Origin: an uncultured Gammaproteobacteria bacterium
GTDB lineage: Bacteria; Patescibacteriota; Patescibacteriia; Magasanikbacterales; UBA922
NCBI GenBank assembly: GCA_964345045.1
Contig: CAYFPM010000001.1
Coordinates: forward strand, 300,215 to 364,214
Direction of reading: 5' to 3'
DNA length: 64,000 nucleotides
This document shows positions 2,707 to 30,824 of the stretch, one piece after another. The translations under genes were made by a program, and so were the position numbers. The stretch's first letter is position 1, and every line of letters starts with the position of its first letter. The notes under the pieces were generated by a model. The model was not told the DNA's origin and ran no database searches. It saw nothing but the letters and a program-made list of their open reading frames with translations.

Positions 2707-4320
2707 CTAGACCTCGTCTGCTTCTGTAAATTCGGCTTGAGCCGGTTTTATTTTTAACAATTTTTTCTCAAAAGCTTCTTTGAACTTTATCATTTCTTCT
2801 ACTTTTAGGATGTAACAAATATAAGCAAAAACCAAAATACCAGCTGTTCCGGCTACAAAACCTTGAGTTAAAATCCCCCAAAATTTGGTCATGTCAACAA
2901 GACTCGCAATTGGAGATTTTAGACTTTGAACTACAATCATCATAACAAGACCAGCTCCAGAAATTTTCAAAACACTCTCTACCATTTTTGACTCGTGCAA
3001 AGTACCAAGCTTGTCTCGCAGAGTTAACCACAATAGGGCTAGCTGAATAATCATGGCGAGTGAAAAAGCTAGAGCCAAGCCACTAACCCCTAAAATATTT
3101 TTGAGATAAATCCCGGCAATAATATTTATAAGCGAACTAACCAGGCCTACCAAAAAAGGTGTCCAAGTATCGTGTAGTACAAAAAAAGTGCGAACAAGTA
3201 ATGGAATAAGAGCTTGGGCAAAAAGTGACAGAGTAAAAAAAGCCAAGGTGTTGGCAGTGCGGATAGTATCTGACCAATCGAATTGACCACTACCCAAAAT
3301 CACACGCACAATTTGGGCGCGCAGCAGCAAGAAAATAATTGTCAGAGGAATTATAAAAAATATAATTTGTCGAATAGTTTGCGATAGGTGTTCGGTCATT
3401 TCTTCTTTCTTATCTTTTGCTACCAAGTGAGCTAGCGTGGGAAAAGCAGCAATAGCAAAGGATATCCCTATAATTCCAACCGGGAAATGTTGAATATTAT
3501 TGGCAAAATTAAACACCGCTACGCTACCAACTCCAACTGTAGAAGCAAAAATTGTTATGACAATTAAGTTAAGCTGGGTAGTAGCTAGTCCGAGGGTTCG
3601 GGGGATCATGAGTTTGCCAATTTTTTTGATATTTTTGTTTTGCCAAAAAAATTTGGGAGTGTAAGCAAAACCATGGTGGAGGAGGCTAGGTACTTGAATT
3701 AACAAATGTAGTAACGCTCCCAATATAACACCATAAGCCAATCCTATAATTCCAAAAACAGGTACAAAAACCAAGGCTCCAAAAATAATACCCAAGTTGT
3801 AAAAAATTGGAGTAAGTGAATAAACAAGAAAAGCTTTGAAAGATTGTAAAACACCACTAACAATAGAACTAAGACCAAGCAAAATTGGGCTAAGAAACAT
3901 GATTCTAGTTAGGCTAATAGTAGTTTGTAATTTTTCTACCGAAAAACCAGGAGCCAATAAAGGAACAATCTGTGGAGTAAAAATAAATAAAATAGTACAA
4001 ATAAAAATTAGGCTAATTCCCAAAATATTTATAATACCACTGGTTACTTGCCAAGCTTCTTTTTTGTCTTTGTTTAAAATTTTGGTGAAAATTGGGATAA
4101 AACCGGCCGAGAGCGCCCCAACAATTACCAGATTATACACTAAGTCCGGGATACGAAAAGCAGCAAAATAAGCATCCAAAATATCGCCGGCGCCAAATTG
4201 ATTGGCAAAAATACGATCACGTATAATGCCAATAAACCTACTTACAAAAGACGCCGCTCCAAGAATAATGGCGGCGCTGGTAATGGATTTACTTTGTGAG
4301 GTGAAAAGTCTTTTTATCAT
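2707..4320 (-). CDS. murJ: lipid II flippase MurJ/MviN
   Basis: 14-TM MOP-superfamily protein with the MurJ N-terminal signature (ILGAASFVSRFIGIIRDRIFANQFGAGDILDAYFAAFRIPD). Confidence 0.85.
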   Translation of the reverse strand: MIKRLFTSQSKSITSAAIILGAASFVSRFIGIIRDRIFANQFGAGDILDAYFAAFRIPDLVYNLVIVGALSAGFIPIFTKILNKDKKEAWQVTSGIINILGISLIFICTILFIFTPQIVPLLAPGFSVEKLQTTISLTRIMFLSPILLGLSSIVSGVLQSFKAFLVYSLTPIFYNLGIIFGALVFVPVFGIIGLAYGVILGALLHLLIQVPSLLHHGFAYTPKFFWQNKNIKKIGKLMIPRTLGLATTQLNLIVITIFASTVGVGSVAVFNFANNIQHFPVGIIGISFAIAAFPTLAHLVAKDKKEEMTEHLSQTIRQIIFFIIPLTIIFLLLRAQIVRVILGSGQFDWSDTIRTANTLAFFTLSLFAQALIPLLVRTFFVLHDTWTPFLVGLVSSLINIIAGIYLKNILGVSGLALAFSLAMIIQLALLWLTLRDKLGTLHESKMVESVLKISGAGLVMMIVVQSLKSPIASLVDMTKFWGILTQGFVAGTAGILVFAYICYILKVEEMIKFKEAFEKKLLKIKPAQAEFTEADEV

Positions 4321-19608: not shown

Positions 19609-19680
19609 TGGGGCGGGCCGGAATCGAACCGGAGACTCTCTGACGGACGTCAGGCGCTTTCCCAATTAAGCTACCGCTCC
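19609..19680 (-). tRNA. tRNA-like gene with atypical anticodon arm (possibly Gly-UCC-like); CCA not encoded
   Basis: Acceptor GGAGCGG/CCGCCCC (one A-C mismatch), D arm GCTT-AATTGGGA-AAGC, T arm with TTCGATT loop. The anticodon region CTGACGTCCGTCAG folds as a tight palindrome and gives a 6-nt loop under the standard template. Confidence 0.45.
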
Positions 19681-27384: not shown

Positions 27385-27699
27385 ATGTTTGCAGTTATAG
27401 AAACTGGTGGCAAACAATACCTAATCAAGACTGGTGACAGCCTAAAAGTGGAAAAATTGGACACTGAGGCTGGTAAAGAAGTGGTTTTTGACAAAGTATT
27501 GCTACTGGCCAAAGAAGATGGTTCCGATGTAAAAATTGGTACTCCTTATCTAGATGGTGTCAGCATTGCTGCTACTGTCGAAGAGCAAGGCCGCAGCCGC
27601 AAATTGCGCGTGGTCAAGTTCAAACGCAAAGTGCGTTACAAACGTGTCCGTGGACACAGACAACATTTTTCTAAAGTGAAAGTTAAGGAAGTTAAATAA
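27385..27699 (+). CDS. rplU: 50S ribosomal protein L21
   Basis: MFAVIETGGKQYLIKTGDSLKVEKL. Confidence 0.9.
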   Translation: MFAVIETGGKQYLIKTGDSLKVEKLDTEAGKEVVFDKVLLLAKEDGSDVKIGTPYLDGVSIAATVEEQGRSRKLRVVKFKRKVRYKRVRGHRQHFSKVKVKEVK

Positions 27700-27742: not shown

Positions 27743-28117
27743 TTTGACTTATTTTGGTTTTGTGTTTATTCTTCAAAAAGAAAGAGAGGTTTTTAATGAA
27801 ATTTTGGGATGCCTTGGCACCTCAGTCCGAGAGACAAGTACTATCTGCAAAAGCTAAAGCACCGGTTAGCGTATGCGAAACTTGCCTATGGTTTTCTCGT
27901 TTTCCAGATGGAAACAATGAGCATGGGCATCCGGGGAGGTGTACTTTGTATCGCCCAGAGCACAGGTCGGAGCCTTACTCAGAAAGGCCTCCTTGCGCGG
28001 ATTTGTAAGAGGGGCTATCTCTTTTGCCATTATCGATCTTTGTGGGGTGTCTATCTTACTACCCCAACCACTTCTTGTTTTCAGCAGATTTTTTGGTGAG
28101 AAGAATAAGTGTAAAGT

Positions 28118-28153
28118 AAAAAAAACACCAGTTTTACGGCTGGTGTTTTTTTG
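28118..28153. terminator. bidirectional terminator-like hairpin (A8-acaccag..ctggtgt-T7)
   Basis: aaaaaaaacaccagttttacggctggtgttttttt. Confidence 0.5.
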
Positions 28154-28321
28154 CATAACGTTCCGGTATATCTGATGTTGCAACCGTAGGGAGCAATATG
28201 GGTGAGCATTTGGCGTTAGGCAAGCGCGAACCAGATATACGCTGTTAGCTGATGTATTCCTTTTCTTTTTGCCGATGAAATAGGGATTGTTTTAAAAATT
28301 TTCAAATTTCTTTTTCCGTTT

Positions 28322-28351
28322 GGGGGAGGGGGAAGAGGGGAATTAAAGGGG
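28322..28351 (+). other. G-quadruplex-forming motif (G5-N1-G5-N3-G4-N7-G4)
   Basis: gggggagggggaagaggggaattaaagggg, downstream of the toxin gene 3' end. Confidence 0.35.
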
Positions 28352-28402
28352 TGAATTCCTACTCCTTCAAACACCCACAGTGGTCTCATTACTTTTTCTA
28401 TC

Positions 28403-28795
28403 CTATAGAAGGTGGTTGTATTCTGGATAATTTTCTTTGATAAGTCGCTTCCAGTTCGCTGTTTCACTACCTCCGCCTAAATCATTTTTGTGATATACGA
28501 GGAGTACAGAAATTTGCGACGTATCTGTGTGGATTGCCAGGATACAACGATTTCCAGATGCTTTTCTTGATTGATTTGTACCAGCAACAGTAAATTCTGT
28601 CTTACATATCTTAACAGTCTCAGTGTGCACTATCACTTCTGCAATACTTCGATCAAATAGTACATCAATGCTTTGATACTGTCTCACAAGAGCCTCTCTC
28701 GTAATATCCCAAGCACGTTTATATTTCCTTTGGAACTTTTTTACAAAATGCCGCTCAGCAAAGGCGGCAAATGTAACAATATACTTAGTAGACAT
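28403..28795 (-). CDS. RelE/ParE-superfamily-like toxin (130 aa)
   Basis: N-terminus YIVTFAAFAERHFVKKF and C-terminus CILAIHTDTSQISVLLVYHKND resemble the RelE y.v.f..a.kdl / yRiiY...vlrighRkd pattern. Overlaps the upstream antitoxin gene by 11 nt. Confidence 0.5.
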   Translation of the reverse strand: MSTKYIVTFAAFAERHFVKKFQRKYKRAWDITREALVRQYQSIDVLFDRSIAEVIVHTETVKICKTEFTVAGTNQSRKASGNRCILAIHTDTSQISVLLVYHKNDLGGGSETANWKRLIKENYPEYNHLL

Positions 28796-29471
28796 ACTCC
28801 GGATCCTCTTGGGTAATAAGAGAATAAGGAATAATCTCGTTATCCTCACAAATTGAATAAGGAAGCTGCTGGTGTGTAAATTTTACAATCTCGTTTGTTC
28901 TTTTGTCCTTCCACTTCTTTGCAATACTCTTGATGAGCTCTTTCTCTTCTTTTGAGAGTGAAGCCAATTTTGCACGTCGAACTGCTTCTGATTCTCCTAC
29001 CAGGATTGCATCACCTTTGCGTTTGATGGAGATAGTCCCTTCATCTTCTAGCTCGGTGAGTGCACGGAAGTACATATCTGGCACAGGTCCGTATTCAATC
29101 TTTCGATATTTCATACCGCTCATACTCTCGAGGTGGTTGTAGAACCATGCAAAGTCTGCAAGGTACACGAGTTTCGCTAGTTTGGTTTTTGGGATTCTTC
29201 CGTCTCCCTTGTGTCCTGCAGTACGGAGATAGGCAAGAATAATTTCTTTGTACTTTTCGTAGTTTGGGATCATTTCAGATTGTAGATCCTCAATTTCAAT
29301 ACCAAACATATCCGCCAGCTTGTGCGCTTCGGAGAGTGAGAGTTCACGCTTTCCTTGTTCGATAGAAAGATATGAAGTGCGCGCGATCTCGAGTCGATCC
29401 GCGACCTCTTGTTGTGAAAAGCCTCGCTTTTCACGTAACTCTTTGATGAATTGTGCGTATGCTTGGCTCAT
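28785..29471 (-). CDS. antitoxin: HTH-XRE + Panacea (DUF4065/SocA-like) domain protein (PanA-type)
   Basis: HTH: ELREKRGFSQQEVADRLEIARTSYLSIEQGKR; Panacea: PKTKLAKLVYLADFAWFYNHLESMSGMKYRKIEYGPVPDMY. Confidence 0.7.
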   Translation of the reverse strand: MSQAYAQFIKELREKRGFSQQEVADRLEIARTSYLSIEQGKRELSLSEAHKLADMFGIEIEDLQSEMIPNYEKYKEIILAYLRTAGHKGDGRIPKTKLAKLVYLADFAWFYNHLESMSGMKYRKIEYGPVPDMYFRALTELEDEGTISIKRKGDAILVGESEAVRRAKLASLSKEEKELIKSIAKKWKDKRTNEIVKFTHQQLPYSICEDNEIIPYSLITQEDPEYVY

Positions 29472-29518
29472 ATATGTATTAGTTAAGAGTACTCTTATAT
29501 ACCACAGTATAACATATT

Positions 29519-29562
29519 TGTCAATATATTGACATAATGTTGTCCACACACTTGACAACATT
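29519..29562. promoter_or_regulatory. operator-like palindromes upstream of the antitoxin gene
   Basis: TGTCAATATATTGACA, a perfect 16-bp palindrome at 29519-29534, then ATGTTGTC-N9-GACAACAT at 29538-29562. Confidence 0.55.
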
Positions 29563-29638
29563 TAAATATTTTGAGAAAATATCTCTGCTGGTGTGGTCGA
29601 GCCAGTAGAGTATATATTATTAATCCCGTCATACATAT

Positions 29639-29926
29639 ATGACTAACATAATTTCTGAGTTTGAAGCATTTATGGGCAAAAACGGTCAGTATTATAGCCA
29701 ATTCTATGTTGGTATAACTGATGACCCACGTGAAAGACTCGTAAGTGGACATGGGGTGCATGATCGAATACCACACATCTATACCACTAATCCTTTGCCA
29801 ACGACAACTGTACGAAATATGGAGAAGTATTTTCTTCAAAAAGGTGCACGAGGTGGAACTGGTGGGGGTATTGGTGCTACTAGGTATCTTTATTCGTACT
29901 TGATCACGAACAGTACTCGTCAATAG
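29639..29926 (+). CDS. small GIY-YIG-like protein (95 aa)
   Basis: QFYVGITDDPRERLVSGHG resembles the YhbQ/UPF0213 GIY-YIG core; Gly-rich tail; divergent from the TA operon. Confidence 0.35.
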   Translation: MTNIISEFEAFMGKNGQYYSQFYVGITDDPRERLVSGHGVHDRIPHIYTTNPLPTTTVRNMEKYFLQKGARGGTGGGIGATRYLYSYLITNSTRQ

Positions 29927-30230
29927 ACAAGAGGTCAATTGAGCAAACGTGCTGGCTTATCAAGATCTTGCGGAGACACCAACGTATCAACAGTGACAGC
30001 ACTGTACGTTCATCTCTCCAATGGAGTGAGAAAGGCACTCCTCGCTTACAAAGAAACGCGCTTGTCGTGTTTTTTTGTTTATATTCCCCGAAAAAAGAAA
30101 TTTGAAAATTTTTAAAACAATTGGGCGTTAGCTCAGAAAAGAAAAGGAATATTTCAGCTAACTAGACATTATACGAACTAATTACCTAAATAATACCAAA
30201 AAATGTATAAAATACGAATTTTTTAAAAAA

Positions 30231-30824
30231 TCACCCCTTTGTTCTATTTTTCAAAGCACTCCCCAGAGTAATCTCATCGGCATACTGCAAATCACTGCCC
30301 ATCGGCAAACCTCTGGCTAGTCTAGTCACAGTCAAATCCGGGGTCAGCTCTTTCAATTTCTTTTCCAAAAACATCATAGTTGTCTCACCCTTCAAATCCG
30401 GATTAAGCGCCAAGATAATTTCCTTGGCCTCTTTGGCTCTGTCCAAAAGCTCGGCTACTTTGAGATATTTAATTTCGTCTTGCCTGTCTGGCCGAATCGT
30501 GCCACGCAACACATGATAAGTACCATGGTACTCACCAGTTTTTTCAAACACTTGCACGCTTTGTGGTTGATCCACTACACAGATAGTAGCTTTGTCTCTT
30601 CTATTATTAGCACAAACCCTACATGGTGATTGATCGGAAAAATCCCAACAAATTTCGCAACTTTGGATAGAATCAATCAAATATTTGAGAGAATTAATCA
30701 TATCCGCCACATCCCGCTTGCCACTTTTTAATAAATAAAAAACAAACCTCTCGGCCGTGCGTTGACCAACCGAGGGTAGTTTGGAAAAAGAATTAATAAG
30801 TTGTTGGATTGGAGGAGGATACAT
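30231..30824 (-). CDS. recR: recombination protein RecR
   Basis: HhH N-terminus, C4 zinc finger (CEICWDFSDQSPCRVC), Toprim. Confidence 0.9.
   Translation of the reverse strand: MYPPPIQQLINSFSKLPSVGQRTAERFVFYLLKSGKRDVADMINSLKYLIDSIQSCEICWDFSDQSPCRVCANNRRDKATICVVDQPQSVQVFEKTGEYHGTYHVLRGTIRPDRQDEIKYLKVAELLDRAKEAKEIILALNPDLKGETTMMFLEKKLKELTPDLTVTRLARGLPMGSDLQYADEITLGSALKNRTKG

Follow-up and report, generated by a model that had tools for sequence, protein, structure and literature searches.

A probable PanAT-class toxin-antitoxin module in Patescibacteria with a toxin of predicted RelE/ParE fold and a neighboring structured RNA

We analyzed a 64,000-nt stretch of a Patescibacteria genome (GenBank assembly GCA_964345045.1, contig CAYFPM010000001.1, positions 300,215 to 364,214; hereafter the window) and focused on an islet between rplU (27385-27699, plus strand) and recR (30231-30824, minus strand) that holds a pair of minus-strand open reading frames (ORFs) and one plus-strand ORF. 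The core of this islet is probably a bicistronic type II toxin-antitoxin (TA) module of the PanAT class, composed of an antitoxin with a helix-turn-helix (HTH) and a Panacea domain followed by a 130-aa toxin candidate. The best-supported reading of its predicted structure makes the toxin a new branch of the RelE/ParE fold that is specific to Patescibacteria; the module probably regulates its own expression and moves horizontally. Divergent from it lies a 95-aa ORF with a conserved structured RNA directly downstream.

Results

A PanA-type antitoxin and its 130-aa partner

The first gene of the pair encodes a 228-aa protein (beginning MSQAY) that exceeds the gathering thresholds of two Pfam families: HTH_3 at 52.2 bits versus 23 (residues 9-63, nt 29283-29447), and SocA_Panacea/DUF4065 (PF13274) at 56.3 bits versus 25.7 (residues 98-203, nt 28863-29180). 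This upholds the combination of an XRE-type HTH with a Panacea domain that a first-pass annotation, made by a model from the sequence alone, had assigned. NCBIfam and PADLOC added just generic HTH matches and weak SocA/DarG-type matches, and the conservation profile revealed an acidic, conserved C-terminal tail after the Panacea domain. Judged by its domains, the protein fits the PanA type of Kurata et al. 2022 (PMC8832971), whose catalogue includes 343 PanAs with an N-terminal HTH. Its stop codon (28785-28787) and the start codon of the 130-aa gene (28793-28795) place the two genes in an 11-nt overlap, as had been noted before.

The 130-aa protein (beginning MSTKY) gave zero matches in Pfam, NCBIfam, PHROG, PADLOC and PDB sequences, both in single-sequence and in profile searches. 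Its AlphaFold2 model, built with 44 homologues, is of high confidence (predicted local distance difference test, pLDDT, 91.2; predicted template-modeling score, pTM, 0.86) and runs b1, a1, a2, a short helix, b2-b5 and C-terminal helices. When this model was compared to PDB structures with Foldseek, the top matches were almost only RelE/ParE-superfamily toxins, with probabilities up to 1.00, and the matches at a probability of at least 0.85 belonged to this superfamily. The best was HigB2 (8a0x_D, E 3.3e-4), and Pyrococcus aRelE (1wmi_A) followed at E 7e-4 with a target-normalized template-modeling (TM) score of 0.72; further matches were Thermus RelE, M. tuberculosis RelE2, PfiT, YoeB, HigB and YafQ. 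Four residues on the sheet are near-invariant in the family: K65, R83, Y101 and K103. As modeled, the 130-aa protein has a RelE/ParE-superfamily fold. The RelE/ParE-like label of the first-pass annotation, which had proposed both a fold comparison and a search with sequence models as checks, thus stands at the level of the predicted fold, whereas at the level of sequence models the protein went unmatched.

A strictly conserved gene pair in varied neighborhoods

We identified at least 452 homologues of the toxin, all about 130 aa long, unnamed or "hypothetical", and from Patescibacteria wherever a source organism was named. Clustering of 1.84 billion representative sequences at 50% identity splits the family into 170 clusters, and it has relatives in 188 GTDB species genomes; the 80 of these that we examined were all metagenome-assembled genomes of the candidate phyla radiation, except for mislabeled ones. 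A literature search found no description of the family. To the 80 loci (one genome per species) we added 8 from exact look-ups, for a set of 88 related loci, all in Patescibacteria; loci outside the window carry numbers with an L here. In every one of the 88, the toxin homologue is immediately preceded by a full-length PanA homologue (49-92% identity). Among 59 non-redundant modules, 55 have overlapping genes: the 11-nt overlap is kept in 46 and a 14-nt overlap is found in 9 more. panA and the toxin gene are a strictly conserved bicistronic module.

The genes next to the module vary, including dnaG/rpoD (L001) and gatB/purA (L003), and in L006-L008 and L016 the module sits between hsdS and hsdR of type I restriction-modification (R-M) operons (L006:4212-5299, L007:5306-6393 and L008:3759-4846). 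A tRNA gene adjoins about 5 of 80 modules, and we rejected tRNA-targeted integration as a general insertion rule at that frequency. At L099:2806-4288, an HTH-Panacea module with a 241-aa PanA and a 116-aa partner stands beside the ribosomal-protein operon rpsS...rplN; it also carries the 95-aa ORF and the RNA element described below. Ribosomal-protein neighborhoods may be recurrent landing sites.

Operator candidates in the panA promoter

Both palindromes that had been reported upstream of panA are present and lie in its promoter. The perfect one, TGTCAATATATTGACA, matches once in the window (0.01 expected) and overlaps the -35 region of two promoter candidates, ATGTCA-18-TATACT with an extended TG, or TTGACA-17-TATATA. 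The other, ATGTTGTC-N9-GACAACAT, is unique in the window (0.00 expected). On the plus strand, a promoter-like site consisting of TTGACA (29552), a 17-nt spacer and GAAAAT (29580) would drive the 95-aa ORF. The half-sites are conserved: TGTC-N8-GACA of the first palindrome is kept in the closest relatives (L001, L003, L006), and family-wide a TGTCAA...TTRACA inverted repeat upstream of panA is followed by a TTGACT/TATACT promoter. Autoregulation by the HTH of PanA through these operator candidates is plausible and has the backing of this conservation.

In much of the family (e.g. L013, L044, L058) the -10 element TATACT stands just 6-10 nt before the panA ATG, an arrangement that suggests leaderless or near-leaderless transcripts there. 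The panA of the window has a longer leader with no obvious Shine-Dalgarno (SD) sequence.

Inverted repeats and related cassettes

Two inverted-repeat pairs enclose the islet. The inner pair (28286-28318/30089-30121) is 33 nt long and 97% identical, the outer (28244-28269/30137-30162) is 26 nt long and 92% identical, and a divergent spacer separates the two; each pattern occurs twice in the window (0.00 expected). Together they form imperfect arms of about 75 nt that delimit an islet of roughly 1.9 kb. A cassette with 86.5% identity over 1249 nt is found in a second Patescibacteria genome (L003/L005/L009), which belongs to the same sequencing project. In L009, homology to the window is unbroken from 29527 to 28284, covering the promoter, panA, the toxin gene, a C-rich tract and the repeat core, and resumes past a non-homologous slot in the right repeat arm (84% over 88 nt, 30097-30183). 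In L003/L009 the flanking genes differ and unrelated DNA replaces the 95-aa ORF; the toxin-side arm of L003 retains just the 33-nt core. As this cassette shares the repeats amid different flanking genes, the repeats travel with the module in this lineage, and their presence in a second genome, around a related cassette, makes it probable that the whole islet is an acquired unit. A search of viral contigs for the inverted repeats found none. In the L003 slot (L003:4921-5031), the DNA in place of the 95-aa ORF contains a perfect 25-nt inverted repeat that encloses three tandem GACA-N3-TGTC-like units resembling operator half-sites.

Other loci record insertions of a different appearance. L054 has a module of about 1.14 kb between 238-bp copies of the recG 3' end (2536-2773 and 3914-4151) that are 98.7% identical. 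In L018, L019, L020, L034, L047, L077 and L080 the module is bordered by direct repeats of 26-146 bp, which are unrelated, host-derived and in many cases terminators. These flanking duplications of variable length show that the cassette inserted in discrete events.

The divergent 95-aa ORF

The 95-aa protein belongs to a family of at least 89 homologues, none annotated. The first-pass annotation had called this ORF GIY-YIG-like and divergently transcribed; the orientation is as described, and the family assignment finds support across the family rather than in this copy. The window protein scored 14.0 bits against Pfam GIY-YIG (PF01541; gathering threshold 22.6; E 0.063), over profile positions 11-39 only, while 28 of 54 family members matched PF01541 at E <= 1, the best of them at E 3.4e-5, and no other family competed. 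Its AlphaFold2 model (pLDDT 92.7) alternates helix, strand, helix, strand, helix, strand. No GIY-YIG protein was among its fold matches in PDB, and the second match in BFVD is a GIY-YIG protein, a weak one at probability 0.57. Residues Y23, G25, H38, E62, G72, G75, G76, Y85, Y87 and T93 are invariant, and a YVG...R...H...E motif (Y23-x-G25, R33, H38, E62) varies little or not at all; neither the sequence nor the model contains the first "GIY" strand. A fair description is a distantly GIY-YIG-like protein that lacks the first strand.

At most of the places that we examined, a close homologue is found upstream of an HTH-Panacea gene and in divergent orientation, and these places include modules with other partners (116 aa in L099; 130 aa with a weak DUF4258 match in L102). 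Distant homologues occur without PanA in surroundings of defense-island type at L117/L118 and L125 (type I R-M), L134:461-1237 (DUF1883-TIR), L132:4302-4979 (DUF3800) and L127:1-775 (HTH plus M78 peptidase).

A structured RNA that marks a slot of interchangeable small genes

Behind every close 95-aa homologue examined, including those away from panA, we found an RNA element of about 115 nt followed by a terminator. In the window it includes an SD-like GAGG (29931-29934) and the 5' strand of an outer helix, TTGAGC (29939-29944). RNAalifold folded a 15-locus alignment into a long hairpin with interruptions, in which 15 of the 19 pairs have compensatory changes. The share of paired cells is 95.1% versus 79.0% in shuffles, and the covariation score is 0.612 versus 0.298; 0 of 500 shuffles reached either value. 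Sliding the pairing partners by 1-3 columns reduced pairing to 32-48%. A covariance model built from the alignment found three further copies (L014, L033 and L035; 91-100 bits) with the pairs kept. Because G-U pairs are frequent, the RNA is placed on the small-ORF strand. Rfam gave no match to the element at gathering thresholds across the whole window, nor any with E below 1.7 in a permissive search of 29900-30100; viral contigs held no copy, and a literature search found no description. The element is a new, covariation-supported structured RNA.

The ORF before the RNA is not constant. The 95-aa ORF is replaced by a DUF1508/YegP-like protein of 63 aa (34 bits) in L013:3151-3342(-), by a 102-112-aa protein that looks GIY...YIG-like by eye and has no Pfam match in L014:4864-5202(-) and L033:4859-5167(-), and by a 55-aa basic protein in L035:5035-5202(-); the RNA is thus the marker of a slot in which small genes can replace one another. 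At its 5' end, in the window and other carriers, this slot has a hairpin with a (T)TCGAC loop: such hairpins, with differing stems, lie 82-128 nt upstream of panA in the window, L013, L035, L044, L050, L067 and L087. One further match, in L022, is the T-arm of a real tRNA gene. At the other end, terminators equivalent to that of the window follow the RNA at other loci. The window and L098 share a homologous block (28419-30085) that spans the toxin gene through the RNA and stops just inside the right repeat arm.

We considered a small peptide gene inside the RNA, starting at a TTG behind the SD-like GAGG, and rejected it: reading frames and stops differ across loci while the nucleotides are conserved. 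Pairing of the GAGG with CCUC in an internal loop (GAGGy:rCCUC) gave a permutation P of 0.027 at two variable positions and 0.09 with a third, which lends weak support to a pseudoknot or alternative helix. The RNA may switch its SD-like GAGG between free and paired states.

Layout of the locus

Every sequence feature named in the first-pass annotation is present at the locus; the limits that it drew, 28216-29930, are not the natural ones, which are the inverted repeats at about 28244-30162 (Table 1). The earlier left edge is the end of an 83-aa ORF (28216-28467) that public assemblies leave uncalled and that had no family match in profile scans, and the earlier right edge excludes the conserved RNA element and its terminator (29930-30078).

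Table 1. Features of the islet, in window coordinates, and copies of the RNA element at related loci
Feature	Position	Strand	Basis or remark
Left, toxin-side inverted-repeat arm	28244-28318		Islet limit; repeat search
3' untranslated stretch with C-rich tract on the coding strand	28319-28402	-	Conserved in the related L009 cassette
130-aa PanT-type toxin candidate, RelE/ParE-superfamily fold	28403-28795	-	Predicted structure
PanA-type antitoxin, 228 aa	28785-29471	-	Pfam HTH_3 and SocA_Panacea
Candidate panA promoter(s)	29496-29535	-	Consensus scan and direct sequence reading
Perfect 16-bp palindrome, operator candidate 1	29519-29534		Overlaps panA -35 region
Palindrome, operator candidate 2	29537-29561		Overlaps -35 of divergent plus-strand promoter
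Hairpin with TCGAC-containing loop, 10-bp stem	29583-29610	+	5' end of small-ORF transcript
95-aa ORF, conserved small-protein family, distantly GIY-YIG-like	29639-29926	+	Divergent from PanA
Conserved structured non-coding RNA element, directly 3' of the small ORF	29930-30049	+	Covariation
Intrinsic-terminator-like hairpin and T-run, end of small-ORF/RNA transcript	30048-30078	+	Terminator scan
Right, small-ORF-side inverted-repeat arm	30089-30162		Islet limit; repeat search
RNA element copies	L013:3044-3163, L014:4750-4868, L033:4750-4867, L035:4925-5043, L044:1239-1358, L067:4796-4895	-	
RNA element copies, other	L098:3574-3706, L099:4283-4400, L102:4282-4401, L106-L114		

The absence of rpmA had been taken as a sign of insertion. 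The gene is indeed missing from the window, where tblastn with E. coli and B. subtilis L27 gave a best E of 2.4 and an L27 motif regular expression had zero matches. This is not evidence for an insertion, because rplU has its own promoter and terminator and a separate unit of about 480 nt precedes the islet. The G+C-richer unit there (27775-28160, plus strand, about 380 nt) has a promoter-like site of its own (27744-27772) and, at 28119-28152, a strong terminator, and it outfolds 100 of 100 shuffles (z -3.45). An Rfam search of it gave no match. Public gene callers disagree between a 70-aa and a 96-aa ORF, and for this reason the unit may be a non-coding RNA. Elsewhere in the window, Rfam detects a tRNA at 19609-19680 (minus strand, 44.1 bits) that is absent from the ARAGORN output for the window.

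Discussion

Our results point to a model in which the 130-aa protein would arrest growth, with ribosome-dependent mRNA cleavage as the most likely mechanism because the best structural matches are HigB2, RelE and YoeB and K65, R83, Y101 and K103 are near-invariant. PanA would neutralize the toxin by direct binding, through its Panacea domain, its acidic C-terminal tail or both, and an HTH dimer would repress the operon at the promoter-overlapping TGTC/GACA palindromes. The 11-nt overlap could couple translation of the toxin gene to that of panA. PanA would probably also control the 95-aa ORF and its 3' structured RNA, given the overlap between the second palindrome and the -35 of the divergent promoter. 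Addiction or abortive-infection-type defense is the most likely biological role; several homologous modules lie inside type I R-M operons.

Several results weigh against parts of this interpretation. RelE, ParE, HigB, YoeB and YafQ sequence models from Pfam and NCBIfam matched nothing in the 130-aa protein at E <= 1, and among 101 diverse family members scanned with Pfam a single RelE match appeared (PF06296, E 0.014). Using hhalign, the family aligned to E. coli RelE and YoeB (query sequences confirmed against PDB entries 4FXE and 2A6Q) with non-significant probabilities of 2.4% and 0.3%; the RelE alignment is topologically sensible and sets K65 on RelE K54 and R83 on RelE R61, which is a hint. 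The structural similarity is itself moderate, with TM-scores of 0.41-0.52 normalized to the query and 0.5-0.72 to the target, and the protein is extended at its C-terminus by about 28 residues of conserved helical sequence that classical RelE does not have. The ParE-type toxins PfiT (9w3a) and PrpT (7ycs) are also among the fold matches, leaving ribonuclease (RNase) and gyrase poison indistinguishable by fold. With respect to mobility, inverted repeats had to be rejected as a family-wide feature, being found just in the window and L003/L005/L009, and exact look-ups of RplU and RecR returned the same population with the islet present. The module is mobile, as judged by its many contexts and the 86.5% identical copy elsewhere; insertion at this site is unproven because no empty rplU...recR site was among those look-ups.

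An unlikely alternative retains the PanAT pair and makes the 130-aa protein a ParE-type poison whose lethal action would be to trap DNA gyrase. The fold is common to RelE and ParE, and ParE needs its C-terminal region to be toxic; the conserved helical extension of the 130-aa protein is also C-terminal. ParE-domain PanTs have already been catalogued (PMC8832971). Set against this, the best-scoring fold matches are the ribosome-dependent RNases HigB2, aRelE, RelE and YoeB, and the near-invariant residues on strands 3-5 resemble the RelE/YoeB catalytic pattern, with which the weak hhalign placement of K65 and R83 agrees. We regard it as very unlikely that the protein is a catalytically dead RelE-fold co-regulator or adaptor of the HTH-Panacea protein, with no growth-arresting TA activity. 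Sequence models of active toxins do fail to match it, and its conservation (about 55-65% identity across many lineages) is unusually high for a toxin. However, the architecture is that of a type II TA system (antitoxin first, overlapping genes, palindromic operators), Panacea proteins are validated antitoxins (PMC8832971, PMC10440598), the distribution is patchy and mobile and extends into R-M operons, and the charged and aromatic residues of the sheet are conserved.

Two further possibilities concern the rest of the islet, and we hold both to be unlikely. The small ORF and its RNA could be the third, PanA-regulated arm of a larger unit, supplying a nuclease or an RNA effector or trigger, or forming an RNA-protein pair of their own that resembles type III TA. 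This would fit the divergent position of 95-aa homologues next to HTH-Panacea genes even with other partners (L099, L102), the block of toxin, PanA, small ORF and RNA that the window and L098 share, the overlap of operator 2 with the divergent promoter, and the strong covariation. It would not explain why the RNA is present in just about 7 of 81 PanAT loci, why the nearest relative, L003, has unrelated DNA in the slot, why small ORF and RNA occur without PanAT in L107, L110 and L114, or why the ORF before the RNA may be a DUF1508, 55-aa or 102-112-aa protein; for these reasons the link to PanAT is facultative. A general form of the idea, that HTH-Panacea modules of Patescibacteria carry an exchangeable slot whose ORF and RNA serve as a PanA-controlled third arm (effector, trigger or mobility), is likewise a tentative suggestion to which we assign a low probability. 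The inverted repeats, in turn, might belong to a non-autonomous transposon or an invertible segment that moved the islet here; in favor of this, they are located exactly at the limits of homology to the related cassette. Of the hallmarks of an insertion sequence or miniature inverted-repeat transposable element, the terminal inverted repeats are present, but no transposase-like or recombinase ORF lies between the arms (ORF list, Pfam), no target-site duplication or direct repeat is visible by eye at their outer ends, and no further repeat copies occur in the window, viral contigs or other family loci. Moreover, the toxin-side arm of L003 is reduced to the 33-nt core, and the repeat center is itself near-palindromic and A+T-rich.

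If a PanAT module with a RelE/ParE-fold toxin is the right reading, a large, unannotated, Patescibacteria-wide toxin family is added to both the PanAT class and this fold, and genomes as small as these retain and exchange modules of this kind, in some cases within R-M operons. Two other findings may prove more important: a new, strongly covarying RNA motif linked to an interchangeable small-gene slot in defense-type neighborhoods, and a 1.1-kb TA cassette with host-derived flanking duplications of variable length, which implies an unexplained way of moving. Were the third-arm reading true, the ORF and RNA would be part of a new three-part defense or addiction architecture rather than an accessory passenger.

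The kind of system is already known. PanAT systems (PMC8832971, PMC10440598) have the same antitoxin with N-terminal HTH and Panacea domain, the same antitoxin-then-toxin order and a variable partner toxin, and in the listed part of the Kurata et al. dataset the PanT clusters T14 and T28 are PanA partners with HHpred matches to HigB-2/RelE/YoeB/ParE (PMC8832971). That listed part has no Parcubacteria or Patescibacteria entries. The toxin family described here differs in having no Pfam or NCBIfam model and in being apparently confined to Patescibacteria, and the accessory small ORF and structured RNA have not been described for PanAT. The best structural matches to the 130-aa model, HigB2 of Vibrio cholerae HigB2/HigA2, RelE of archaeal and bacterial RelBE and YoeB of YoeB-YefM, are likewise small basic proteins with the same b-a-a-b-b-b core, encoded in palindrome-autoregulated operons; sequence similarity to them is non-significant, the conserved C-terminal helical segment is extra, and the antitoxin is of Panacea type instead of HigA, RelB or YefM. 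Another RelE-fold toxin, an RNase, with an HTH-containing PanA is the MqsR-type PanT of Burkholderia fungorum, whose PanA combines a zinc-binding domain with HTH and Panacea domains; there the HTH was proposed to be the autoregulator and the Panacea domain possibly a sensor (PMC10440598). In contrast to that system, no zinc-binding neutralizing domain is present here and MqsR is absent from the top fold matches. As in three-gene TA loci of the paaR-paaA-parE type and the "accessory proteins" of PanAT systems (PMC8832971), a third conserved gene joins a subset of the TA pairs; here, however, that gene is divergent and interchangeable (95-aa GIY-YIG-like, DUF1508 and others) and always stands before one conserved RNA.

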